Part shown: piece after piece, positions 1 through 59,567 of the stretch
How the letters are laid out: every line of letters starts with the position of its first letter
Position numbering within the stretch: position 1 is the stretch's first letter
Origin: Cyanidioschyzon merolae
Lineage: Eukaryota
Reading direction: 5' to 3' (one strand)
NCBI GenBank assembly: GCA_000091205.1
Contig: AP006498.2
Length of the DNA: 64,000 nucleotides
Notes under the pieces: model-generated
Told to the model about the DNA's origin: nothing
The model's database searches: none
Seen by the model: only the letters and a program-made list of their open reading frames with translations
Position numbers and translations under genes: made by a program

Positions 1-1160
1 ACGGAACACCATGCCCTTGTTCGTTGAACAGACTGGAGCCTCTCCGAGCGTATCGTCGAGAAGAAACCCGTAATGATAGGATAGGGTACGATACTAGGCG
101 CGCAACCGGATGGTGCAGGCATCGACTGGTGCCTTCTGTACCCGTCAACGGTATGTTCCGAGCGACGAAGCGAGCATTCCCGTTTCACAGGCCGGCACGC
201 GCAGAGCAATGAAGTGTGGTGGACATACGGGAATCCCTGCTCAGAGACAAGCGCCACCGCTGGGAATTGCATATCGAGTCCATAGACAAGGAACACGCGA
301 ATGGCAAACGAAGCCAAGTATGTACCGACTGCCTGTGCATGAACGACGTCTACAACAGCAGAAAGCGTCGAAATCGGGACGTTCACGCTGCCGTCCGAAT
401 CCTTCGTGTGCTGTTAACGGCACATGAATGCAACGAGAGATCACCGTATGCATCGCCGAAGAGAAGCGCGAGCAAAATGAATCAGGTACAAAGAAGCCCT
501 TAAAGGCGGGTGCTGTCGACAGTGGAACGCTCCCCAAACCTAAGCGCGTACGTCCGAGCTAGCCAAGCAGACCTACCACATTGTAAGCTGACACGACTCG
601 AATAGAAAAGGCATCGGAAGTGTAAATTGACCAGGTGTGGCATCGCAGGAGCGCTGATCCCCAAGGCGAGAAGCGCGCGACGGCACCCCAGCATCTGTTC
701 TGAAGCGATACGCCTTGAACGCGCTACCAGGATATCAAACGTTATCTGCACGAAACTCGCAGCACCCAGCATACATTGTACTTTGTAACGTGCTGTGCTG
801 TGCTGTGCAACGCCCTGATCAGTATCCGGCGTGATCGCCTCTGGACTCCTCGAACAGCGCTGGAGGTGCAGTTTCCTCGAATCTTGGACCGCTGGAGCCG
901 CTCTTCTGGGCCGCTTGACTACGCTCACTGAGGCATTTGGGTGCACCTGGGTTCTGCGAGCGAAGACTACATGAAATCGGGCAGAAACGAACAGGGGGCA
1001 TGTTTCATCGCCTACGCTACAGCTTTCGCCTCTAACCCGCTGTGTGACTACTTGCCAGTCTACTCGACAAAGCTGGTTCCTCTTACCATAGAGACCTTCG
1101 GTAAAGAGCGCACTTGGCTCAGCCTACGTGGTTGAAGCAGTGCTGTAGCCGCGAGATAAG

Positions 1161-1400
1161 GCAGCTACAACCAAACTCGCATCGCTGAACTGCATTGCAT
1201 CCAAGAGGAAACCGTTGTTGTTTGCTTGCGAATAGGAGCGGCTTCATTCCAGTATAGACTTCTTACACTGTGACGAACAGGCAGCTACAACCAAACTCGC
1301 ATCTCTGAACTGCATTGAATCCAAGAGGAAACCGTTGTTGTTTGCTTGCGAATAGGAGCGGCTTCATTCCAGTTTAGACCTCTTACACTGTGACGAACAG
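1161..1400. repeat. Tandem direct repeat, 2 copies of a 120-bp unit (1161-1280, 1281-1400) with a few mismatches, upstream of the GT64 gene
   Basis: Directly visible: 'gcagctacaaccaaactcgcatc(g/t)ctgaactgcattg(c/a)atccaagaggaaaccgttgttgtttgcttgcgaataggagcggcttcattccagt(a/t)tagac(t/c)tcttacactgtgacgaacag' occurs twice back to back. Confidence 0.85.
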
Positions 1401-19643: not shown

Positions 19644-20168
19644 CAGGTGCATCGAAAGCTCGCTGGCGACGCTGCGAGCCATGTCAACGTGTCGAGAGGC
19701 TTATTGCTTGTTCCGAAAGAAGCTGGATCTCGTTTCCGCCCCGCGGGAAGTGCATCGTGCACCAGAAGCGGCATCGCAGGTATTCTGTGCGATGGACGGA
19801 TGCGGGGCTTTGGCGTTTCCACAAACTCAGCGCTACTAAAGGTAGACGGGCTGACATTGCTGCCTCGCGCGCGCTCTGCGTCAAGTCCGTTCGTTGTGAT
19901 TGTGGCTGGTTCCGAGAAGCGCGTGCTACCACACGTGGACCCTTCAGTGTCACCGCCGATTTTGCGGAGAGCATTCCAATGAACTTGGCGGAGCAGAGCT
20001 TTCGGCGACCTCGACGTTCGCGAGCGTGCGGCATCGCTGTCTCTGCTCCGCTGAGCTCGGCGTTAACCGTAGGTGTGGCGCACGAGAGGTCGCTGGACCT
20101 AGTAAGTCTCTATTCGTAAATTGGAGGCGATTCATGGATGAATGGAATGCTCAGGCGTTGATACAGAA

Positions 20169-20440
20169 CCTTGGGCAGTGTCCCTAGATATTCAGATTGC
20201 CCGTGCATTCACAGAACATTTGGAGCAATGCTTCCATCCAGTATCACAGGTAACTTGAATAAACCTTGGGCAGTATCCCTAGATATCCAGGTTGCCCGTG
20301 CATTCACAGAACATTTGGAGCAATGCTTCCATCCAGTATCACAAGCAAATTGAAAGCACCTTGGGCAGTATCCCTAGATATCCAGATTGCCCGTGCATTC
20401 ACAGAACATTTGGAGCAATGCTTCGATCCCATATTCCAAG
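20169..20440. repeat. Tandem minisatellite, about 2.9 copies of a 95-bp unit (20169-20263, 20264-20358, 20359-~20440) between HIRA and HOP2
   Basis: Visible repetition of 'ccttgggcagt(g/a)tccctagata(t/c)(t/c)cag(a/g)ttgcccgtgcattcacagaacatttggagcaatgcttccatccagtatcaca...'. The repeat generates spurious repetitive small ORFs in the track (20171..20353, 20266..20466, 20292..20600). Confidence 0.85.
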
Positions 20441-26940: not shown

Positions 26941-27744
26941 TTGGACGGAGCTGCACCTGTGTTTGCAGGCACTGCTTCCTTCACAACAACAACAACAACA
27001 ACAACAACTATGAGCCGCTCGAGTGCGACCAAGGCAGAGACGCTGGCGACGCTCTCACCGCCAGAGTCGTTCGGGATCGTCGAGCAAGGCGTTTACCGCG
27101 CGAACTTGCCACATCCTCTCAGTTTCCCTTTTCTAAAACATCTAAACCTGAAGACTGTGCTGATGCTTTCTCAAGAGTCGCCGACGCGCGTTGTCACCCA
27201 GTTTTTCGAGGATAACCAGGTGGAGCTCGTGCAGCTCGGCATGCGGGTCTTCAAGCCGACTGAGGCTTCCTGGAAACCCTGTTCTGAGGAGCTCGTGAAA
27301 GAGGCTCTCGAAACTGTACTCTGTCGTGCAGCGCACCCGTTGTTGATCTGCGGTGCAAGCGGCGTGCACGCCGTAGGCGTCGTTGTTGGATGTCTGCGGA
27401 AACTACAGGGCTGGAGTCTGAGCTCGATCGTCAATGAGTACCGCAGCTACGCCGGCACCAAAACCCGTTACGTCGACGAGCAGTTTATCGAGCTCTTCGA
27501 TATTGATCTGGTTCAGGTGCCGGCTGACCCCGAGCGGGTGTACCTACCGTCCTGGTACCACGTATACCAGCAGTTTGCTGAGGAGGATCGACAGCGCTTT
27601 CGCAGCGCTAGTGCGCGGGGCGAGATCACCAGAGATGGCATTTTGAGTCACGCCACGTTGAGTTATTGGAAATATTACTTTGCCACGTGTACGGCTCCAT
27701 TGTGCTCGAGTGAACTTGCATGCGACCGCTCAGATAGCGCTTAG
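26941..27744 (+). CDS. Tyr_phos_2 / PFA-DSP (Siw14/Oca1-like) atypical dual-specificity phosphatase homologue with degenerate P-loop (putative pseudophosphatase)
   Basis: 'PPESFGIVEQGVYRANLPHPLSFPFLKHLNLKTVLML' and 'VGVVVGCLRKLQGWSLSSIVNEYRSYAGTKTRYVDEQFIELFD' match the Siw14/plant PFA-DSP family ('GCLRKLQxWxLTSIFDEYxRFA...DQxFIExFD'). The active-site loop reads 'ICGASGVHA' where the family has 'HCKRGKHR', so the CX5R Cys and Arg are not conserved. An alternative start is the Met at 27010, after the poly-Thr encoded by (CAA)n. Confidence 0.65.
   Translation: MDGAAPVFAGTASFTTTTTTTTTMSRSSATKAETLATLSPPESFGIVEQGVYRANLPHPLSFPFLKHLNLKTVLMLSQESPTRVVTQFFEDNQVELVQLGMRVFKPTEASWKPCSEELVKEALETVLCRAAHPLLICGASGVHAVGVVVGCLRKLQGWSLSSIVNEYRSYAGTKTRYVDEQFIELFDIDLVQVPADPERVYLPSWYHVYQQFAEEDRQRFRSASARGEITRDGILSHATLSYWKYYFATCTAPLCSSELACDRSDSA
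26985..27008. repeat. (CAA)n trinucleotide microsatellite, about 8-9 units, at the 5' end of the 26941 ORF (encodes poly-Thr in frame)
   Basis: 'caacaacaacaacaacaacaacaacaa' is directly visible. Confidence 0.9.
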
Positions 27745-28349
27745 CCAAGGCGTGCCAGACCCGCACGTTGACAAACCCATGGCATGTCGCGCAACGGCCA
27801 ACGTGTGAAGCGAGATGGTGTCCGGTGGTGCCTTGTCTTTGCCAGGCGTTGGCATTGAAAACTATGTATCGACACTGGTGTCGGATGGAGACGGAATGCT
27901 GGAATGGTCGCTCTGCTCCTGAATTTCGATGTTTTCTACGTTTACGACGTGAAGAACGTCGGCATTCCAAGTGCAGCAAAAAGGGCTCACGTACGCATAA
28001 GTAGTTTTAGGAATCTCGGTCGTCGTTTTGGAGTGCCCCATACGACTCCATGTCGATCGACTTCGCCACGTCACCGCCATGAGCATGGTTCGTGATATCC
28101 TCGAAGGAGGATTCGTAACGTAACCGACATGTCTATCCAATGCATTCGTACGAGGCTTCACGCTTCTCCTTTCGTTACGTCGGACATGCCCAAATCGCGC
28201 ATGCTTCAGGTTCTCGATCTTCTGTTTCAAGGCATTTTATGGGCGAAGCGAATTGCACCGACAGCTTGATAAGGACAAACACTCGACGTCGTTGCCTGAG
28301 GACCTGTTGACGAGCTCATGTCGGAACTTTACTGAACTTGTCACGTCAG

Positions 28350-29040
28350 ACGATCTCTTCCATTCGAAAAACAAATGACATTCTCTTTTCACCCACTGAC
28401 AAAAGCGCATTCGATACCTGCAGCACGGTACCTCTGCGGGGATATGCGCCCAGAGGCTCCCGCCGGTTTTCCCGGTCGGAAAAGAGTCATGCACTCGGAA
28501 TCGAGTCATCGCCGCGCTCTCTTGCAGTGGCGAGTGCGTCACTGCCTTGCACGAAGAGAGCGTTGACGGAAAGGATTGTTACGACTTGCTCTCCAGCCTG
28601 GATCCTCCTACTGGTGTTGCTTTAGTCATGGACAACATCGTGTTCCATGAATCCTCTGTCGAATGGAACAGTGTGCGCATGCACGTGCAGCGCAGCGAGT
28701 ACTTGCCGATGAGATTGCCCAGAAGAAGCCCGTGATCGGACGGTATGGCACCGGGTGCGGATACGGACCAAGGCACCCAGCGGAGACCTTGATTCTCGTC
28801 AACGGGGGCGTATACCAAGCGTTGACGCAATCTATAACGCGCAACAGGTCCGCCCTTGGGAGAGGAATTGTGGTGGTGGACGTGTGCGAACACCTGGTCT
28901 CAGACAAGTGTTTCTGTTGTGAAGAGCGCACCGACGATGCACACAAGGAGGGTACGTATTGCGAGTGGAGCGTAGATCGCAACTTGCGCCTACGCATGAA
29001 ATACGTGAAGAGCTGCTGGGAGCTGTGTAATCGGGTCTTG
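28350..29040. repeat. Copy A of a diverged, dispersed paralogous segment (about 0.6 kb); partner at 41997-42580
   Basis: Collinear homology at about 70% identity with a near-constant offset of about 13,535 bp. Examples: A 28651 'atcctctgtcgaatggaacag' vs B 42186 'aatcctccatggaatgggacag'; A 28721 'agaagaagcccgtgatcggacggtatggcaccgg' vs B 42258 'gaacaagcccgcgaccaaagggtacggcaccga'; A 28991 'tacgcatgaaatacgtgaag' vs B 42531 'gtgcatgaaatgcttgaac'. A carries an extra ~115 bp at about 28370-28470. ORFs on both strands are conserved only as fragments. Confidence 0.55.
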
Positions 29041-29970
29041 GGCGCTGCCATCAACATCCGTCGACTGCGCACAGCAGAGTTGTCGCTACGAGAGACACCG
29101 GTATATCGAAAGCAGGAGATCACAGGGAGAAAACGAAGTAGTTGCAAAAATGCCCACAAAGGCTACTGCTGACAAAATTTGGAAGACACGCAATGTTGAA
29201 CATGTACACCCGAGTTTGACAACCCGTCTCACCGTAAGCTGATACGGGCATCGTGCATCGTATTGTACCATGCGGTGCAGAGACGCAGCGATCGGCCATG
29301 CTCTACATAGAACACATGCTTGGTCATACCTTTTGAGACGGTGGCGTATGGTTCGGGTTCGCGGAGCCGCGCCCGAGGCCGTCCGTACTTTACAAAAGAA
29401 TCCATGGGAAGCTTCCGCAAGTTGGATTCATGACTGCTTCCGAGCCGCCTTTGGGTGTACGGCAAGCATACCGTAGCCGGCAGCGATGGGAGCAGCGCGC
29501 AGGGCCCCGTCTGTGTTTCAAGCAAGAATCCTTGGGAAGCTCCCGTTCGCACGCAACATGACTGCTTCACAGCCGACTTGGGGCGTACGAGAATCCCAGC
29601 GCACAACCGATAGCGATTGCGGCATGGTCGGAAGCCGGGCACCACGACCACTGCGAAATGGCCGCCATGCCCAGCGTGCGGCTGTCGCCGCCTAACCGGT
29701 TACACACGTTACCGCTGCAGTTGCAGCAGCAGGACGTGGAAGCGTATTCCGCAGGGGTAGTGTCGCCGGCCCTGACTGCAACAAAACGTCTGAGGGCGTC
29801 TGTTTCATGCAGACGACAGGCCTCTCTGCCGCCGTTCGGTCCAAGTCGGGCCCCAGGCTGGAGGCATCGTTGCGCTCCGTGGCAACGGTGCCAACAATCT
29901 GACCTGATTCGCTCGACGAGCTGGGAAGCAGATCCGAATAGAGGTCGGCACGGAAAGCTACTGTATAACG

Positions 29971-31542
29971 CTAGCGAGAAGCGCTACTGTCGCCCTTGGG
30001 GCAGTGAACGTTCTCCATGCTGCGCGCGAAAAACCACTCGGGTGGCGAGCGAAACGCATTGGCGATCCGACTGAAAGTAGATGCCTCCCGCTCGGGCTCT
30101 ACCAGGTCCGGCGACCCGCATTCCTCTTTGAAGGAGTCCAGTGGCGTTGCTGGAGCCGGCTCTAGACTTCCAGTGCCAGCTGGCGGGGTCAGATCACTGG
30201 GCGCTCTCGGTGAAGCGCCAGCCGGGGGCGACTCTTCCCAGGCGTTTCCCTCGAGCGAGAGCAGCCGCTGCATAGGTCGCTCATTCCAGCGGAGACATCG
30301 TGATACCGAACGAAACCAATCCTGTGTCTGGTCGTTATAATTCAACGTAGCTAGAGGCCAAGGTGATATCTGAACTCGTAAGTAGTCCCCGCGCTGGAGT
30401 TCCGTGCGCGCTCGTCCGTCGAAACTGACCCAGGCTGAGCCCCGCGCATGACGCGATACGCGAATTTTCAGCGTTACATAGTCTGGAAAGATCACCGGTC
30501 GAAATGACAGCGAGTGCGGACAAATCGGCGTCAGTAGAATAGCTGGTACCGAAGGATGCACCATCGAGCCGTTGCTCGACAACGAGTACGCTGTGGAACC
30601 CGTCGGCGTCGCCAGGATGACTCCGTCAGCTTGAATGCGCGTCACTGGAAAGTCATCGCAGTAACATTCCAGATTACTGAGAAACGGTGCTGGACCACGG
30701 TCGACGACGACTTCGTTCAATACAGTCTTTTGGATCAGGGGTCGCTGACCATCGCCATCCTTGTAGATAGCACAGTCCAGCCTCATTCGCAGCGTAACGG
30801 TGACGTCGCTGCCGCGCATTACCTCCCGAACGCATGACGGGAAATTGTTGAACGGAAAGGGTGTGAGAAAGCCCAAAGATCCTAGATGAAAAGGCATCAG
30901 TGGTGGTGCCGCTTTCGGAAAGAGCGATGCACAGGCGTGCAAAACGAGTCCATCACCACCCAAGCAGATGACCAGGTCGATGGGTGTCTGCGTCTGTTCT
31001 CGTGGAAAGTGCAACGTGCCCGGTAGCGTGTGCTCTGTTTCCGAGTAGAGGATGAGTTCTGGATACTCAGCTTCAAGCCATTGACATATTTTAACCGCGG
31101 AACTTCGAGCAGAATCAGAGTAGACGGTGAAGAGAATCAGAATGTGTCGCACCGGGCGAGACCAGCGCAAGTAAATGTTGCGATAGCTTGCCGGTAGCAA
31201 AGGACGGTGCAGAACGCGCCACTCAAGAGAGCATGCCGTTGGTTTCTGTGCGAGCTGCTCAAGAACCTCACTGGCTGTGTGTACGTGCGGCAAACGCGGT
31301 ACCTCTGGCGGCGATACCGCTCTCCCCTGTGCACAGGGGTTCACGGTGCGTCGCTCCTCGGGGGTCAGCGGGTCCGAGAACCGCTGCGTTTCCTCCTCTG
31401 CGGCTTCGAGTTGAATTCCGCTGAGTACGCTACGTAGCTGGGAGCACTGTTCGTCCTGTCGAACAGACAGACACCCACTCCCAAGAATAAGTTGTGCTGC
31501 GGACATGGAGCGCCGCCTCCGGCAGCACCGCAACCTGACCAA
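29971..31542 (-). CDS. NAD+ kinase (NADK, PpnK family)
   Basis: 'DLVICLGGDGLVLHA' (GGDG motif), 'NEVVVDRG', and 'DGVILATPTGSTAYSLSSNGSMVHPSVPAILLTPICPHSLSFRPVIFPD', the NAD-kinase signature block. Single ORF of 523 aa. Confidence 0.8.
   Translation of the reverse strand: MVRLRCCRRRRSMSAAQLILGSGCLSVRQDEQCSQLRSVLSGIQLEAAEEETQRFSDPLTPEERRTVNPCAQGRAVSPPEVPRLPHVHTASEVLEQLAQKPTACSLEWRVLHRPLLPASYRNIYLRWSRPVRHILILFTVYSDSARSSAVKICQWLEAEYPELILYSETEHTLPGTLHFPREQTQTPIDLVICLGGDGLVLHACASLFPKAAPPLMPFHLGSLGFLTPFPFNNFPSCVREVMRGSDVTVTLRMRLDCAIYKDGDGQRPLIQKTVLNEVVVDRGPAPFLSNLECYCDDFPVTRIQADGVILATPTGSTAYSLSSNGSMVHPSVPAILLTPICPHSLSFRPVIFPDYVTLKIRVSRHARGSAWVSFDGRARTELQRGDYLRVQISPWPLATLNYNDQTQDWFRSVSRCLRWNERPMQRLLSLEGNAWEESPPAGASPRAPSDLTPPAGTGSLEPAPATPLDSFKEECGSPDLVEPEREASTFSRIANAFRSPPEWFFARSMENVHCPKGDSSASR

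Positions 31543-37209: not shown

Positions 37210-37240
<31 letters not shown>
37207..37240. repeat. (GCAA)n tetranucleotide microsatellite, about 8 units
   Basis: 'cgcaagcaagcaagcaagcaagcaagcaagcaacc' is visible, about 200 bp upstream of the 37411 ORF. Confidence 0.9.
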
Positions 37241-37241
<1 letters not shown>

Positions 37242-58909: not shown

Positions 58910-59256
58910 CTGGTGTAGGTGCTCCCAAAGCGGAAACGCTGGATGCGTTCCAAGCACGTGCTCCTTAGCGCAGCAGCCGCTGCGTACGTCGTACCGAGGC
59001 GCCGCACGCCGTTGCTGCTTCGGGATTCCCGGCAGCGATTTGCGTTCGCGGCATATGATCGTCGAAGCAGGCGTCAGCGGTCGCTTGTTCATGACAAGGA
59101 GGCACCATATGTCGAGCTGGCGTCCGTCAGGGCCTCGTACGGGCGCTGCCTGTACCCGAGAGCAATCACGGATCCAGCGGATCGAGGTAAGATGTATCGA
59201 TTTTTCAGTATGAAAAAGAGCAGTGGCCTTCTTCTCGTATTGTCGGGTATGAGTAT

Positions 59257-59567
59257 GCATCCACGCAATTCAGCTACGATTCATCCACGTCTCCGTATTG
59301 CAAGGAGCAGCAATCCTCTTCTCACATTTTCGGGTATCATTAGGCATCCACGCAATCCAGGCACGATTCATCCACGTCTCCGTATTGCAAGGAGCAGCAA
59401 TCCTCTTCTCACATTTTCGGGTATCATTAGGCATCCACGGAATCCAGGCACGATTCATCCACGTCTCCGTATTGCAAGGAGCAGCAATCCTCTTCTCACA
59501 TTTTCGGGTATCATTAGGCATCCACGCAATCCAGCTACGATGCATCCACGTCTCCGTATTGCAAAAC
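59257..59567. repeat. Tandem minisatellite, about 3.6 copies of an 87-bp unit, about 350 bp upstream of the spermidine synthase start
   Basis: The unit 'gcatccacgcaat(t/c)cag(c/g)(t/c)acgattcatccacgtctccgtattgcaaggagcagcaatcctcttctcacattttcgggtatcattag' repeats at 59257, 59344, 59431 and partially at 59518. It produces the repetitive peptide ORFs 58919..59674(+) and 59270..59545(-) in the track. Confidence 0.85.

Follow-up and report, generated by a model that had tools for sequence, protein, structure and literature searches.

The 64-kb stretch of Cyanidioschyzon merolae DNA analysed here, referred to below as the window, carries an intronless gene for a protein of 244 residues that is an exact match of BAM81908.1/XP_005537944.1 of C. 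merolae 10D (exact-sequence look-up) and is annotated by NCBI as 'similar to tyrosine phosphatase Oca1p'. Six further proteins encoded here likewise have identical counterparts in C. merolae 10D, and the window is accordingly a chromosome segment of this red alga. BAM81908.1 belongs to the Y_phosphatase2 (PFA-DSP/OCA) family of atypical dual-specificity phosphatases (DSPs), and its phosphate-binding loop (P-loop) has Gly and Ala at the positions of the catalytic Cys and Arg. The features of the gene are as follows.

27010..27744, plus strand: intronless coding sequence, 244 amino acids and stop codon (open reading frame (ORF) list, exact-sequence look-up, Pfam)
26983..27008, plus strand: (ACA)8.7 microsatellite in the 5' leader, directly upstream of the start codon (Tandem Repeats Finder (TRF), strain comparison)
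27058..27531, plus strand: protein tyrosine phosphatase (PTP)-fold domain, Y_phosphatase2, residues 17-174 (Pfam, AlphaFold2 (AF2) model, Foldseek)
27250..27279, plus strand: loop residues 81-90 (FKPTEASWKP), a Trp insertion in the WPD-equivalent loop (column frequencies, 352-member alignment)
27346..27378, plus strand: degenerate P-loop I113-C-G-A-S-G-V-H-A-V-G123 (HMMER, MAFFT, AF2 secondary structure)
27460..27477, plus strand: K151-T-R153-Y-V-D156, equivalents of Lys186, Arg188 and Asp191 of AtPFA-DSP1 in the alpha5-alpha6 loop, second shell of the pocket (HMMER residue mapping, PMC9038691)
27550..27693, plus strand: C-terminal extension specific to the Arg-less clade, with predicted helices 181-203 and 218-228 (AF2 predicted local distance difference test (pLDDT) ~87-95, alignment)

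The degenerate P-loop of BAM81908.1

Profile and structure comparisons both bear out the originally proposed homology to the PFA-DSP/Siw14/Oca1 family. BAM81908.1 matches PF03162 Y_phosphatase2 over the whole domain (E=2.1e-43; 148 bits against a gathering score of 27), with residues 17-174 aligned to profile positions 3-157 of 165. HMMER matches to solved structures include AtPFA-DSP1 (E=1.8e-27) and Siw14 (E=2.2e-26). An AF2 model built on 63 homologues is confident, with a mean pLDDT of 89 and a predicted template modelling score (pTM) of 0.84. Searched against the PDB with Foldseek, its top matches are again AtPFA-DSP1 and Siw14 (E ~1e-15, root-mean-square deviation (rmsd) 1.9-2.2 A), and template modelling (TM) scores normalised to the target range from 0.84 to 0.93, including 0.91 with AtPFA-DSP1 at an rmsd of 2.2 A. 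The modelled beta-strand 111-115 followed by helix 120-132 reproduces the canonical strand, P-loop and helix layout of the PTP/DSP fold. The model thus presents BAM81908.1 as a PTP-fold relative of Siw14 and Oca1 whose fold and P-loop architecture are predicted to be intact.

The register of the loop is unambiguous. The HMMER alignment is gapless over residues 93-166 with top posterior marks and sets LLICGASGVHAVG opposite VLIHCKRGKHRTG; around the active site, H109-P-L-L-I-C-G-A-S-G-V-H-A-V-G123 stands opposite H-P-V-L-I-H-C-K-R-G-K-H-R-T-G. In the numbering of AtPFA-DSP1, the nucleophile Cys150 is replaced by Gly115 and the P-loop Arg156 by Ala121, while the basic residues Lys151, Arg152 and Lys154 are replaced by Ala116, Ser117 and Val119. 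Gly153 and His155 are kept as Gly118 and His120, and Cys114 stands where AtPFA-DSP1 has His149, the His of HCX5R. The original prediction had read the same changes from 27346..27375, which encodes residues 113-122 (I113-C-G-A-S-G-V-H-A-V122): Cys to Gly, Arg to Ala, a Cys one residue early and the loss of the two P-loop Lys. All of them are confirmed by the ungapped HMMER register and by MAFFT, which gives the identical register in alignments of 64 and of 352 family members. The checks proposed at that stage agree, as the PF03162 match and the HMMER alignment leave Gly115 and Ala121 at the catalytic positions, and the AF2 strand ends at 115 with the helix beginning at 120. An alternative P-loop register was considered and is ruled out by HMMER, both MAFFT alignments and the AF2 secondary structure, there being no insertion or deletion near the loop.

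The resulting loop, CGASGVHA, departs from the HCxxGxHR signature of the active Siw14/PFA-DSP clade and lacks the basic side chains with which that clade holds inositol pyrophosphates (PP-InsP). Roles in AtPFA-DSP1 have been described for Cys150, Lys151, Arg152, Lys154, His155, Arg156, Lys186, Arg188 and Asp191 (PMC9038691). Lys151, Arg152 and Lys154 hold PP-InsP, and His155, Lys186, Arg188 and Asp191 line the pocket and contribute to catalysis (PMC9038691). With the loss of every one of the four basic side chains by which the P-loop grips 5-InsP7, canonical binding of a highly charged PP-InsP by BAM81908.1 appears improbable. The pocket could nevertheless hold a small anion via backbone amides together with His120, Lys151, Arg153 and Asp156. 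Across the Arg-less clade described below, these four residues are conserved in 74%, 51%, 89% and 16% of sequences respectively (352-member alignment), with mostly Asn at the last position.

The start of the protein requires separate comment. The first ATG of the ORF lies at 27010, the stop codon occupies 27742-27744, and the NCBI model begins MSRSS. A poly-Thr run encoded by a (CAA)n microsatellite had originally been placed at the N-terminus. The repeat is real; the poly-Thr run falls away, as the repeat precedes the first ATG and the NCBI start, and the run is absent from BAM81908.1 orthologues when these are compared. The repeat is most likely a length-polymorphic microsatellite in the 5' leader. 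Upstream of the ATG the window offers a single in-frame 'start', a TTG at 26941, and the 267-residue form beginning there was rejected as a product of calling ORFs with the bacterial code. In environmental C. merolae-like strains the length of the (ACA)n repeat ranges between 6 and 11 units, and metagenome gene calls give versions of 258-269 residues that start with ATG, GTG or TTG depending on the strain and contain poly-Thr runs of T6 to T11. For the codon at 26941 the window reads TTG, and four environmental (metagenome) contigs read ATG. Because of that in-frame ATG, an N-terminal extension of 23 residues, including the poly-Thr, could be translated in such strains.

The Arg-less clade and its canonical relatives

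Protein searches recover orthologues of BAM81908.1 in Cyanidiococcus (78% identity), Cyanidium (61%) and Galdieria (51%), and also in Rhodosorus. The next matches, at 45-54% identity, come from Mucoromycota, chytrids, Furculomyces and the ichthyosporeans Sphaeroforma and Creolimax, and canonical Siw14- and Oca1-type proteins of plants and fungi rank below these. An exhaustive HMMER scan of 1.84 billion representatives yielded 2,396 relatives at E<=1e-3. Among the best 150 of their 50%-identity representatives the CX5R motif is broken in 126, in which the nucleophile position holds Cys (90), Asp (26), Ser (8) or Gly (2) and the Arg position mostly Glu, Gln or Leu; both Cys and Arg are lost in 34 of the 150.

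A neighbour-joining (NJ) tree separates the family into three groups, namely a Siw14-type 'HCxKGKHRTG' group, an Oca1-type 'MCxxGRHRTG' group and a large Arg-less group with the loop 'xC(T/S)SG(I/V)H(Q/E)TG'. The red algae fall within the last as a 'C-D-(T/A)-S-G-I-H-x-V-G' subgroup, in which Asp has become Gly in Cyanidioschyzon and Cyanidiococcus. The loss of catalytic residues is therefore clade-wide and not peculiar to the BAM81908.1 gene. Loss of the Arg predates the split between red algae and fungi and goes back to the ancestor of a clade that is ancient and very large. The change of Cys to Asp took place before the red-algal classes diverged, and that of Asp to Gly in the Cyanidioschyzon/Cyanidiococcus lineage. 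Within the Arg-less branch as a whole, which occurs in red algae, early-diverging fungi and ichthyosporeans, the nucleophile has been replaced repeatedly, by Asp, Ser or Gly. The age and breadth of this branch, combined with the repeated replacement of the nucleophile, point to a conserved non-catalytic function.

Distinguishing features of the clade extend beyond the P-loop itself. In the 352-member alignment W88 is present in 87-89% and P90 in 83-91% of the Arg-less and Oca1-type groups. Siw14-type sequences have gaps at 83-89 and Pro at 90, and the Trp insertion is absent from 28/28 of them. BAM81908.1 hence does not have the short WPD-equivalent loop of the active Siw14/PFA-DSP clade, and the AF2 pLDDT falls to 67 within its loop 81-90. 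The residue before the nucleophile is hydrophobic in place of His in both the Arg-less and the Oca1-type groups, a feature that the Siw14-type lacks. At this position, 114, the Arg-less group has Met in 41% and Cys in 22% of sequences and otherwise Val, Leu, Ile or Thr, and the Oca1-type has Met in 92%. In PTPs the side chain of the His of HCX5R points away from the pocket, under the P-loop. From the hydrophobic pattern across the clade and this architecture, we infer that Cys114 probably occupies a buried position.

The shared Trp insertion and the shared hydrophobic residue in place of His before the nucleophile speak for placing BAM81908.1 with the Oca1-type. The NJ tree, however, which is midpoint-rooted, without bootstrap and without yeast Oca2, Oca4 and Oca6, pairs the Oca1-type with the Siw14-type and leaves the Arg-less clade separate. 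With a different signature, no basic loop residues and a longer WPD-equivalent loop, BAM81908.1 lies outside the active Siw14/PFA-DSP clade. It combines the family fold with critical active-site substitutions, which is how the OCA clade has been defined (PMC13573052).

The C-terminal extension provides a further mark of the Arg-less clade. Some 65-80% of Arg-less sequences have residues at positions 183-196, where at least 89% of the Oca1- and Siw14-type proteins show gaps. Helix 218-228 includes the 'YWKYYF' of a longer 'YWKYYF...APLC' motif, of which 'APLC' is encoded just downstream of 27693. A tail motif 'Y.(K/R)YY(F/Y) ... (A/S)PL.S' at residues 218-235 (window ~27661..27714), modelled with pLDDT ~87-95, is common to the long Arg-less forms and missing from the short (~190 residue) fungal ones.

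The original prediction had raised the question of an intact paralogue elsewhere in the genome, and two were found. BAM81328.1 (P0320; 164 residues, 'VMCNLGRHRTG') is of Oca1-type and was detected in a search with the Galdieria Oca1-type protein. BAM82990.1 (P0464; 167 residues, 'MHCNSGKHRSG') is of Siw14-type and carries the UniRef name diphosphoinositol-polyphosphate diphosphatase; it was traced via a Cyanidioschyzon-like metagenome contig of 161 kb and an exact-sequence cluster look-up. Both are encoded on other C. merolae chromosomes (with locus L023 2992-3495) and have orthologues in Cyanidiococcus and Cyanidium. In C. merolae each of the three family types, Siw14, Oca1 and Arg-less, was thus detected in exactly one copy. 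The paralogues share genome and family with BAM81908.1, at 44% (BAM81328.1) and 40% (BAM82990.1) identity, and differ from it in keeping CX5R (MCNLGRHR and HCNSGKHR), in their length of 164-167 residues and in lacking the C-terminal extension. Identity between C. merolae and Cyanidium is 93% for BAM81328.1, 85% for BAM82990.1 and 61% for BAM81908.1. On these values the putatively dead copy evolves several-fold faster than the canonical copies, which are 3-5 times slower, and yet it is constrained.

That constraint is seen directly in the orthologues. The ICGASGVHAVG loop is present in 15/15 members of the 90% cluster, drawn from independent NCBI, JGI, ENA and Logan assemblies, and in two Cyanidiococcus-type orthologues. 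Against Cyanidiococcus yangmingshanensis the proportion of synonymous differences (pS) is 0.77, which is saturated, and that of non-synonymous differences (pN) is 0.135. Against Cyanidium caldarium pN is 0.275, and synonymous sites are saturated, with pS of at least 0.75 across the orthologue comparisons. Between two Cyanidiococcus-like sequences the ratio of non-synonymous to synonymous substitution rates (dN/dS) is 0.08. Since synonymous change is saturated while non-synonymous change remains low, the gene is maintained by purifying selection.

A probable pseudophosphatase that may act by binding

Judged by its residues, BAM81908.1 is very likely not a Cys-based phosphatase, and the probable reading is that it is a non-catalytic PTP-fold pseudophosphatase of the OCA clade with a binding or partner role. 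The original suggestion of a catalytically dead family member is supported in this respect by the loop register, the missing Cys and Arg, the purifying selection and the intact paralogues. BAM81908.1 would act by binding rather than by hydrolysis, using conserved surfaces and the clade-specific C-terminal helices, and its most likely role would be that of a partner or regulatory subunit of BAM81328.1 and/or BAM82990.1. We put forward this specific mechanism, involving the Oca1- and Siw14-type paralogues, as a tentative analogy, plausible and a little short of probable. A role as either a substrate-binding or a regulatory subunit had been envisaged. Only the second is favoured here, as a regulatory or protein-partner role; substrate-binding towards inositol pyrophosphates is less likely given that all four basic P-loop side chains are gone.

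Known systems provide partial precedents. STYX and other animal pseudophosphatases have a PTP/DSP fold in which the nucleophilic Cys is replaced, and they act by binding. In STYX the Cys is replaced by Gly and the P-loop Arg is kept, and the protein binds phospho-ligands. BAM81908.1 has the same replacement of the nucleophilic Cys by Gly, but unlike STYX it is without the Arg and all basic loop residues, and the two belong to unrelated PTP subfamilies.

The yeast Oca proteins are closer relatives. OCA-clade proteins have active-site substitutions or deletions, are predicted pseudophosphatases and form the sister of the PFA-DSP clade (PMC13573052). Their motifs in yeast are CCGMGRHR in Oca1, where Cys and Arg are intact, HSNKGKHR in Oca2, a deletion in Oca4 and HCTNGELI in Oca6 (PMC13573052). 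Recombinant ScOca1 is inactive on p-nitrophenyl phosphate (pNPP), 3-O-methylfluorescein phosphate (OMFP) and a phosphoinositide. Immunoprecipitation-mass spectrometry (IP-MS) and two-hybrid screens show mutual interactions among the yeast Oca proteins and Siw14, in a role that is undefined (PMC13573052; PMC13216928). BAM81908.1 has in common with Oca1, Oca2, Oca4 and Oca6 the Pfam family, the fold, a substituted active-site motif and the coexistence with an active Siw14. However, none of the four yeast motifs fits 'xC(T/S)SG(I/V)H(Q/E)TG' or the red-algal 'CD/CG' loop, and in the NJ tree of Siw14-type, Oca1-type and Arg-less proteins BAM81908.1 falls in the last of these, a distinct branch that carries a C-terminal helix of its own.

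Compared with Siw14 and AtPFA-DSP1, which are active inositol-pyrophosphate phosphatases (PDB 6E3B, 7MOD), BAM81908.1 has ~35-37% identity, the same strand-loop-helix arrangement of the P-loop, the 'GCLRKLQ.W' motif, E143-Y144 and equivalents of His155, Lys186, Arg188 and Asp191. It differs from them in having no Cys150, Arg156, Lys151, Arg152 or Lys154, in a 3-residue insertion in the WPD-like loop and in a helical C-terminal extension of ~60 residues.

Several points weigh against a non-catalytic partner. The 'dead' status is drawn from residues that are absent, the partner hypothesis from analogy with the yeast Oca proteins, and the burial of Cys114 from alignment and known PTP architecture. 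With His120, Lys151, Arg153 and Asp156 retained, the pocket is not fully degenerate. Most members of the Arg-less clade keep the Cys (69%) and His120 (74%), and some chemistry given up by the Gly115 protein might survive in the clade overall.

The Oca1-like annotation of the gene is already known, as are predicted OCA-clade pseudophosphatases. What is added here is descriptive and useful rather than surprising, namely how broad and how old the Arg-less branch is, that it has a C-terminal module and that its nucleophile has been replaced repeatedly. A literature search combining Cyanidioschyzon with PFA-DSP/Siw14 returned top-ranked papers without Cyanidioschyzon and nothing on the BAM81908.1 gene, and Marchantia OCA-clade genes are not mentioned under those names in PMC11611267.

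Neighbouring genes and alternative readings

The immediate downstream neighbour, in convergent orientation, is a NAD kinase gene at 29971..31542 on the minus strand (Pfam NAD_kinase and NAD_kinase_C). Cyanidiococcus, related metagenome contigs and Cyanidium have the convergent pair too; in Cyanidium the genes upstream of it are different. In two other 'CD'-motif lineages (P0040 and P0019) a glutamine-dependent NAD synthase adjoins the orthologue, in differing orientations. The loci of NAD kinase or NAD synthase adjacency outside the window are:

L005 11348-12877
L006 10764-12287
L007 7700-9082
L010 11045-13330
L012 2601-4685

Such a neighbour is absent in Galdieria, two other protist contigs, Cladochytrium and Radiomyces. 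The adjacency may reflect chance or shared synteny, or be a hint of a link with NAD(P) metabolism.

In the latter case BAM81908.1 would sense a ligand or serve as an adaptor in NAD(P) metabolism, and not in connection with the Oca/Siw14 phosphatases, for example by binding NAD kinase or a phosphorylated dinucleotide. The recurrence of NAD kinase as convergent neighbour in Cyanidioschyzon, Cyanidiococcus and Cyanidium, the NAD synthase neighbour in the P0040 and P0019 lineages, and the existence of a separate Pfam family, PF22741, in which DSP-PTPase domains are fused to NAD kinase, all speak for such a role. However, eukaryotic gene order rarely reflects function, and the adjacency is missing from the cases listed above. 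As the Cyanidiaceae cases form one syntenic block and P0019 and P0040 share synteny, the independent adjacency events number at most two. Matches to PF22741 are sub-threshold cross-matches in all family members and clades, so that PF22741 (PTP-NADK) does not count as evidence for a connection with the adjacent NAD kinase. Literature searches found no support for the proposal and no PTP-like domain in NADK. We therefore regard an NAD(P) sensor or adaptor as improbable. Slightly less credible still is a broader version, in which the Arg-less OCA branch would be a distinct non-catalytic family approaching the age of the last eukaryotic common ancestor (LECA), with its own C-terminal helix and 'Y..YYF...PL.S' tail, whose red-algal function is coupled to NAD(P) biosynthesis instead of being a mere Siw14/Oca1 accessory. 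If true, the red-algal Arg-less proteins could, for example, be partners that regulate NAD kinase or NAD synthase; hints in this direction are the two independent associations as immediate neighbours and the PTP-NADK fusions that exist elsewhere.

A spacer of 2.2 kb (27745..29970 in the window) separates the phosphatase-like gene from NAD kinase in C. merolae; its counterpart has a length of 583 bp in Cyanidiococcus and of 35 bp in Cyanidium. Genes of 99, 169 and 58 residues called by JGI in the spacer have no Pfam matches. BAM81908 and the DES-1 gene (BAM81910) differ by two in accession number; as this gap fits one gene, presumably NAD kinase, it suggests that the spacer holds no annotated gene. 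Elsewhere in the window there are tandem repeats at 1159..1400, 20167..20429 and 59230..59564 (periods 120, 95 and 87 bp, 2-4 copies, 93-96% matches), in intergenic or unassigned sequence, and a (GCAA)8 microsatellite at 37210..37241. No tRNA genes were found in the 64-kb window.

A second alternative is that BAM81908.1 is still an enzyme with non-canonical chemistry, in which a small phosphate ester or anhydride would be the substrate and Cys114 or His120 the nucleophile or base. The segment C114-G-A-S-G-V-H120 has CX5H spacing, and the 'CD' or 'CG' dipeptide is conserved in the red-algal group. His120 is kept, its counterpart His155 being the proposed general base of AtPFA-DSP1, and so are the equivalents of Lys186, Arg188 and Asp191. 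Yet most clade members have Met, Val, Leu, Ile or Thr at position 114, and nearly all of the Oca1-type have Met, a pattern typical of a buried residue. The alignment has no indel that would shift the loop, the modelled strand ends at 115, and neither Arg nor Lys is present to stabilise a transition state. The nucleophile position accepts Cys, Asp, Ser and Gly and the Arg position almost anything, a tolerance that argues for the lack of any catalytic constraint. Catalysis through Cys114 is accordingly unlikely in our estimation, and residual activity of this kind in general is given as little credence.

That the degenerate loop is an artefact, whether a sequencing or assembly error or a decaying pseudogene, has a negligible chance of being correct: single-base changes would suffice to restore Cys (GGT to TGT) and Arg (GCC to CGC), but the loop is identical in the 15 cluster members from independent assemblies, which excludes the sequencing error originally named as a possible refutation, and in both Cyanidiococcus-type orthologues, the ORF is uninterrupted, purifying selection on it is strong, the fold is predicted with confidence and the whole clade shares the degenerate state.

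A non-catalytic member of the OCA clade thus remains the preferred reading of BAM81908.1, and current views are not overturned by it. Inositol-pyrophosphate signalling controls eukaryotic phosphate homeostasis, and what the 'dead' relatives of Siw14 in the OCA clade contribute is recognised as an open question (PMC13573052). C. merolae, with a minimal and genetically tractable genome and a single detected copy of each type, would offer a clean system in which to determine the role of the dead subunit.

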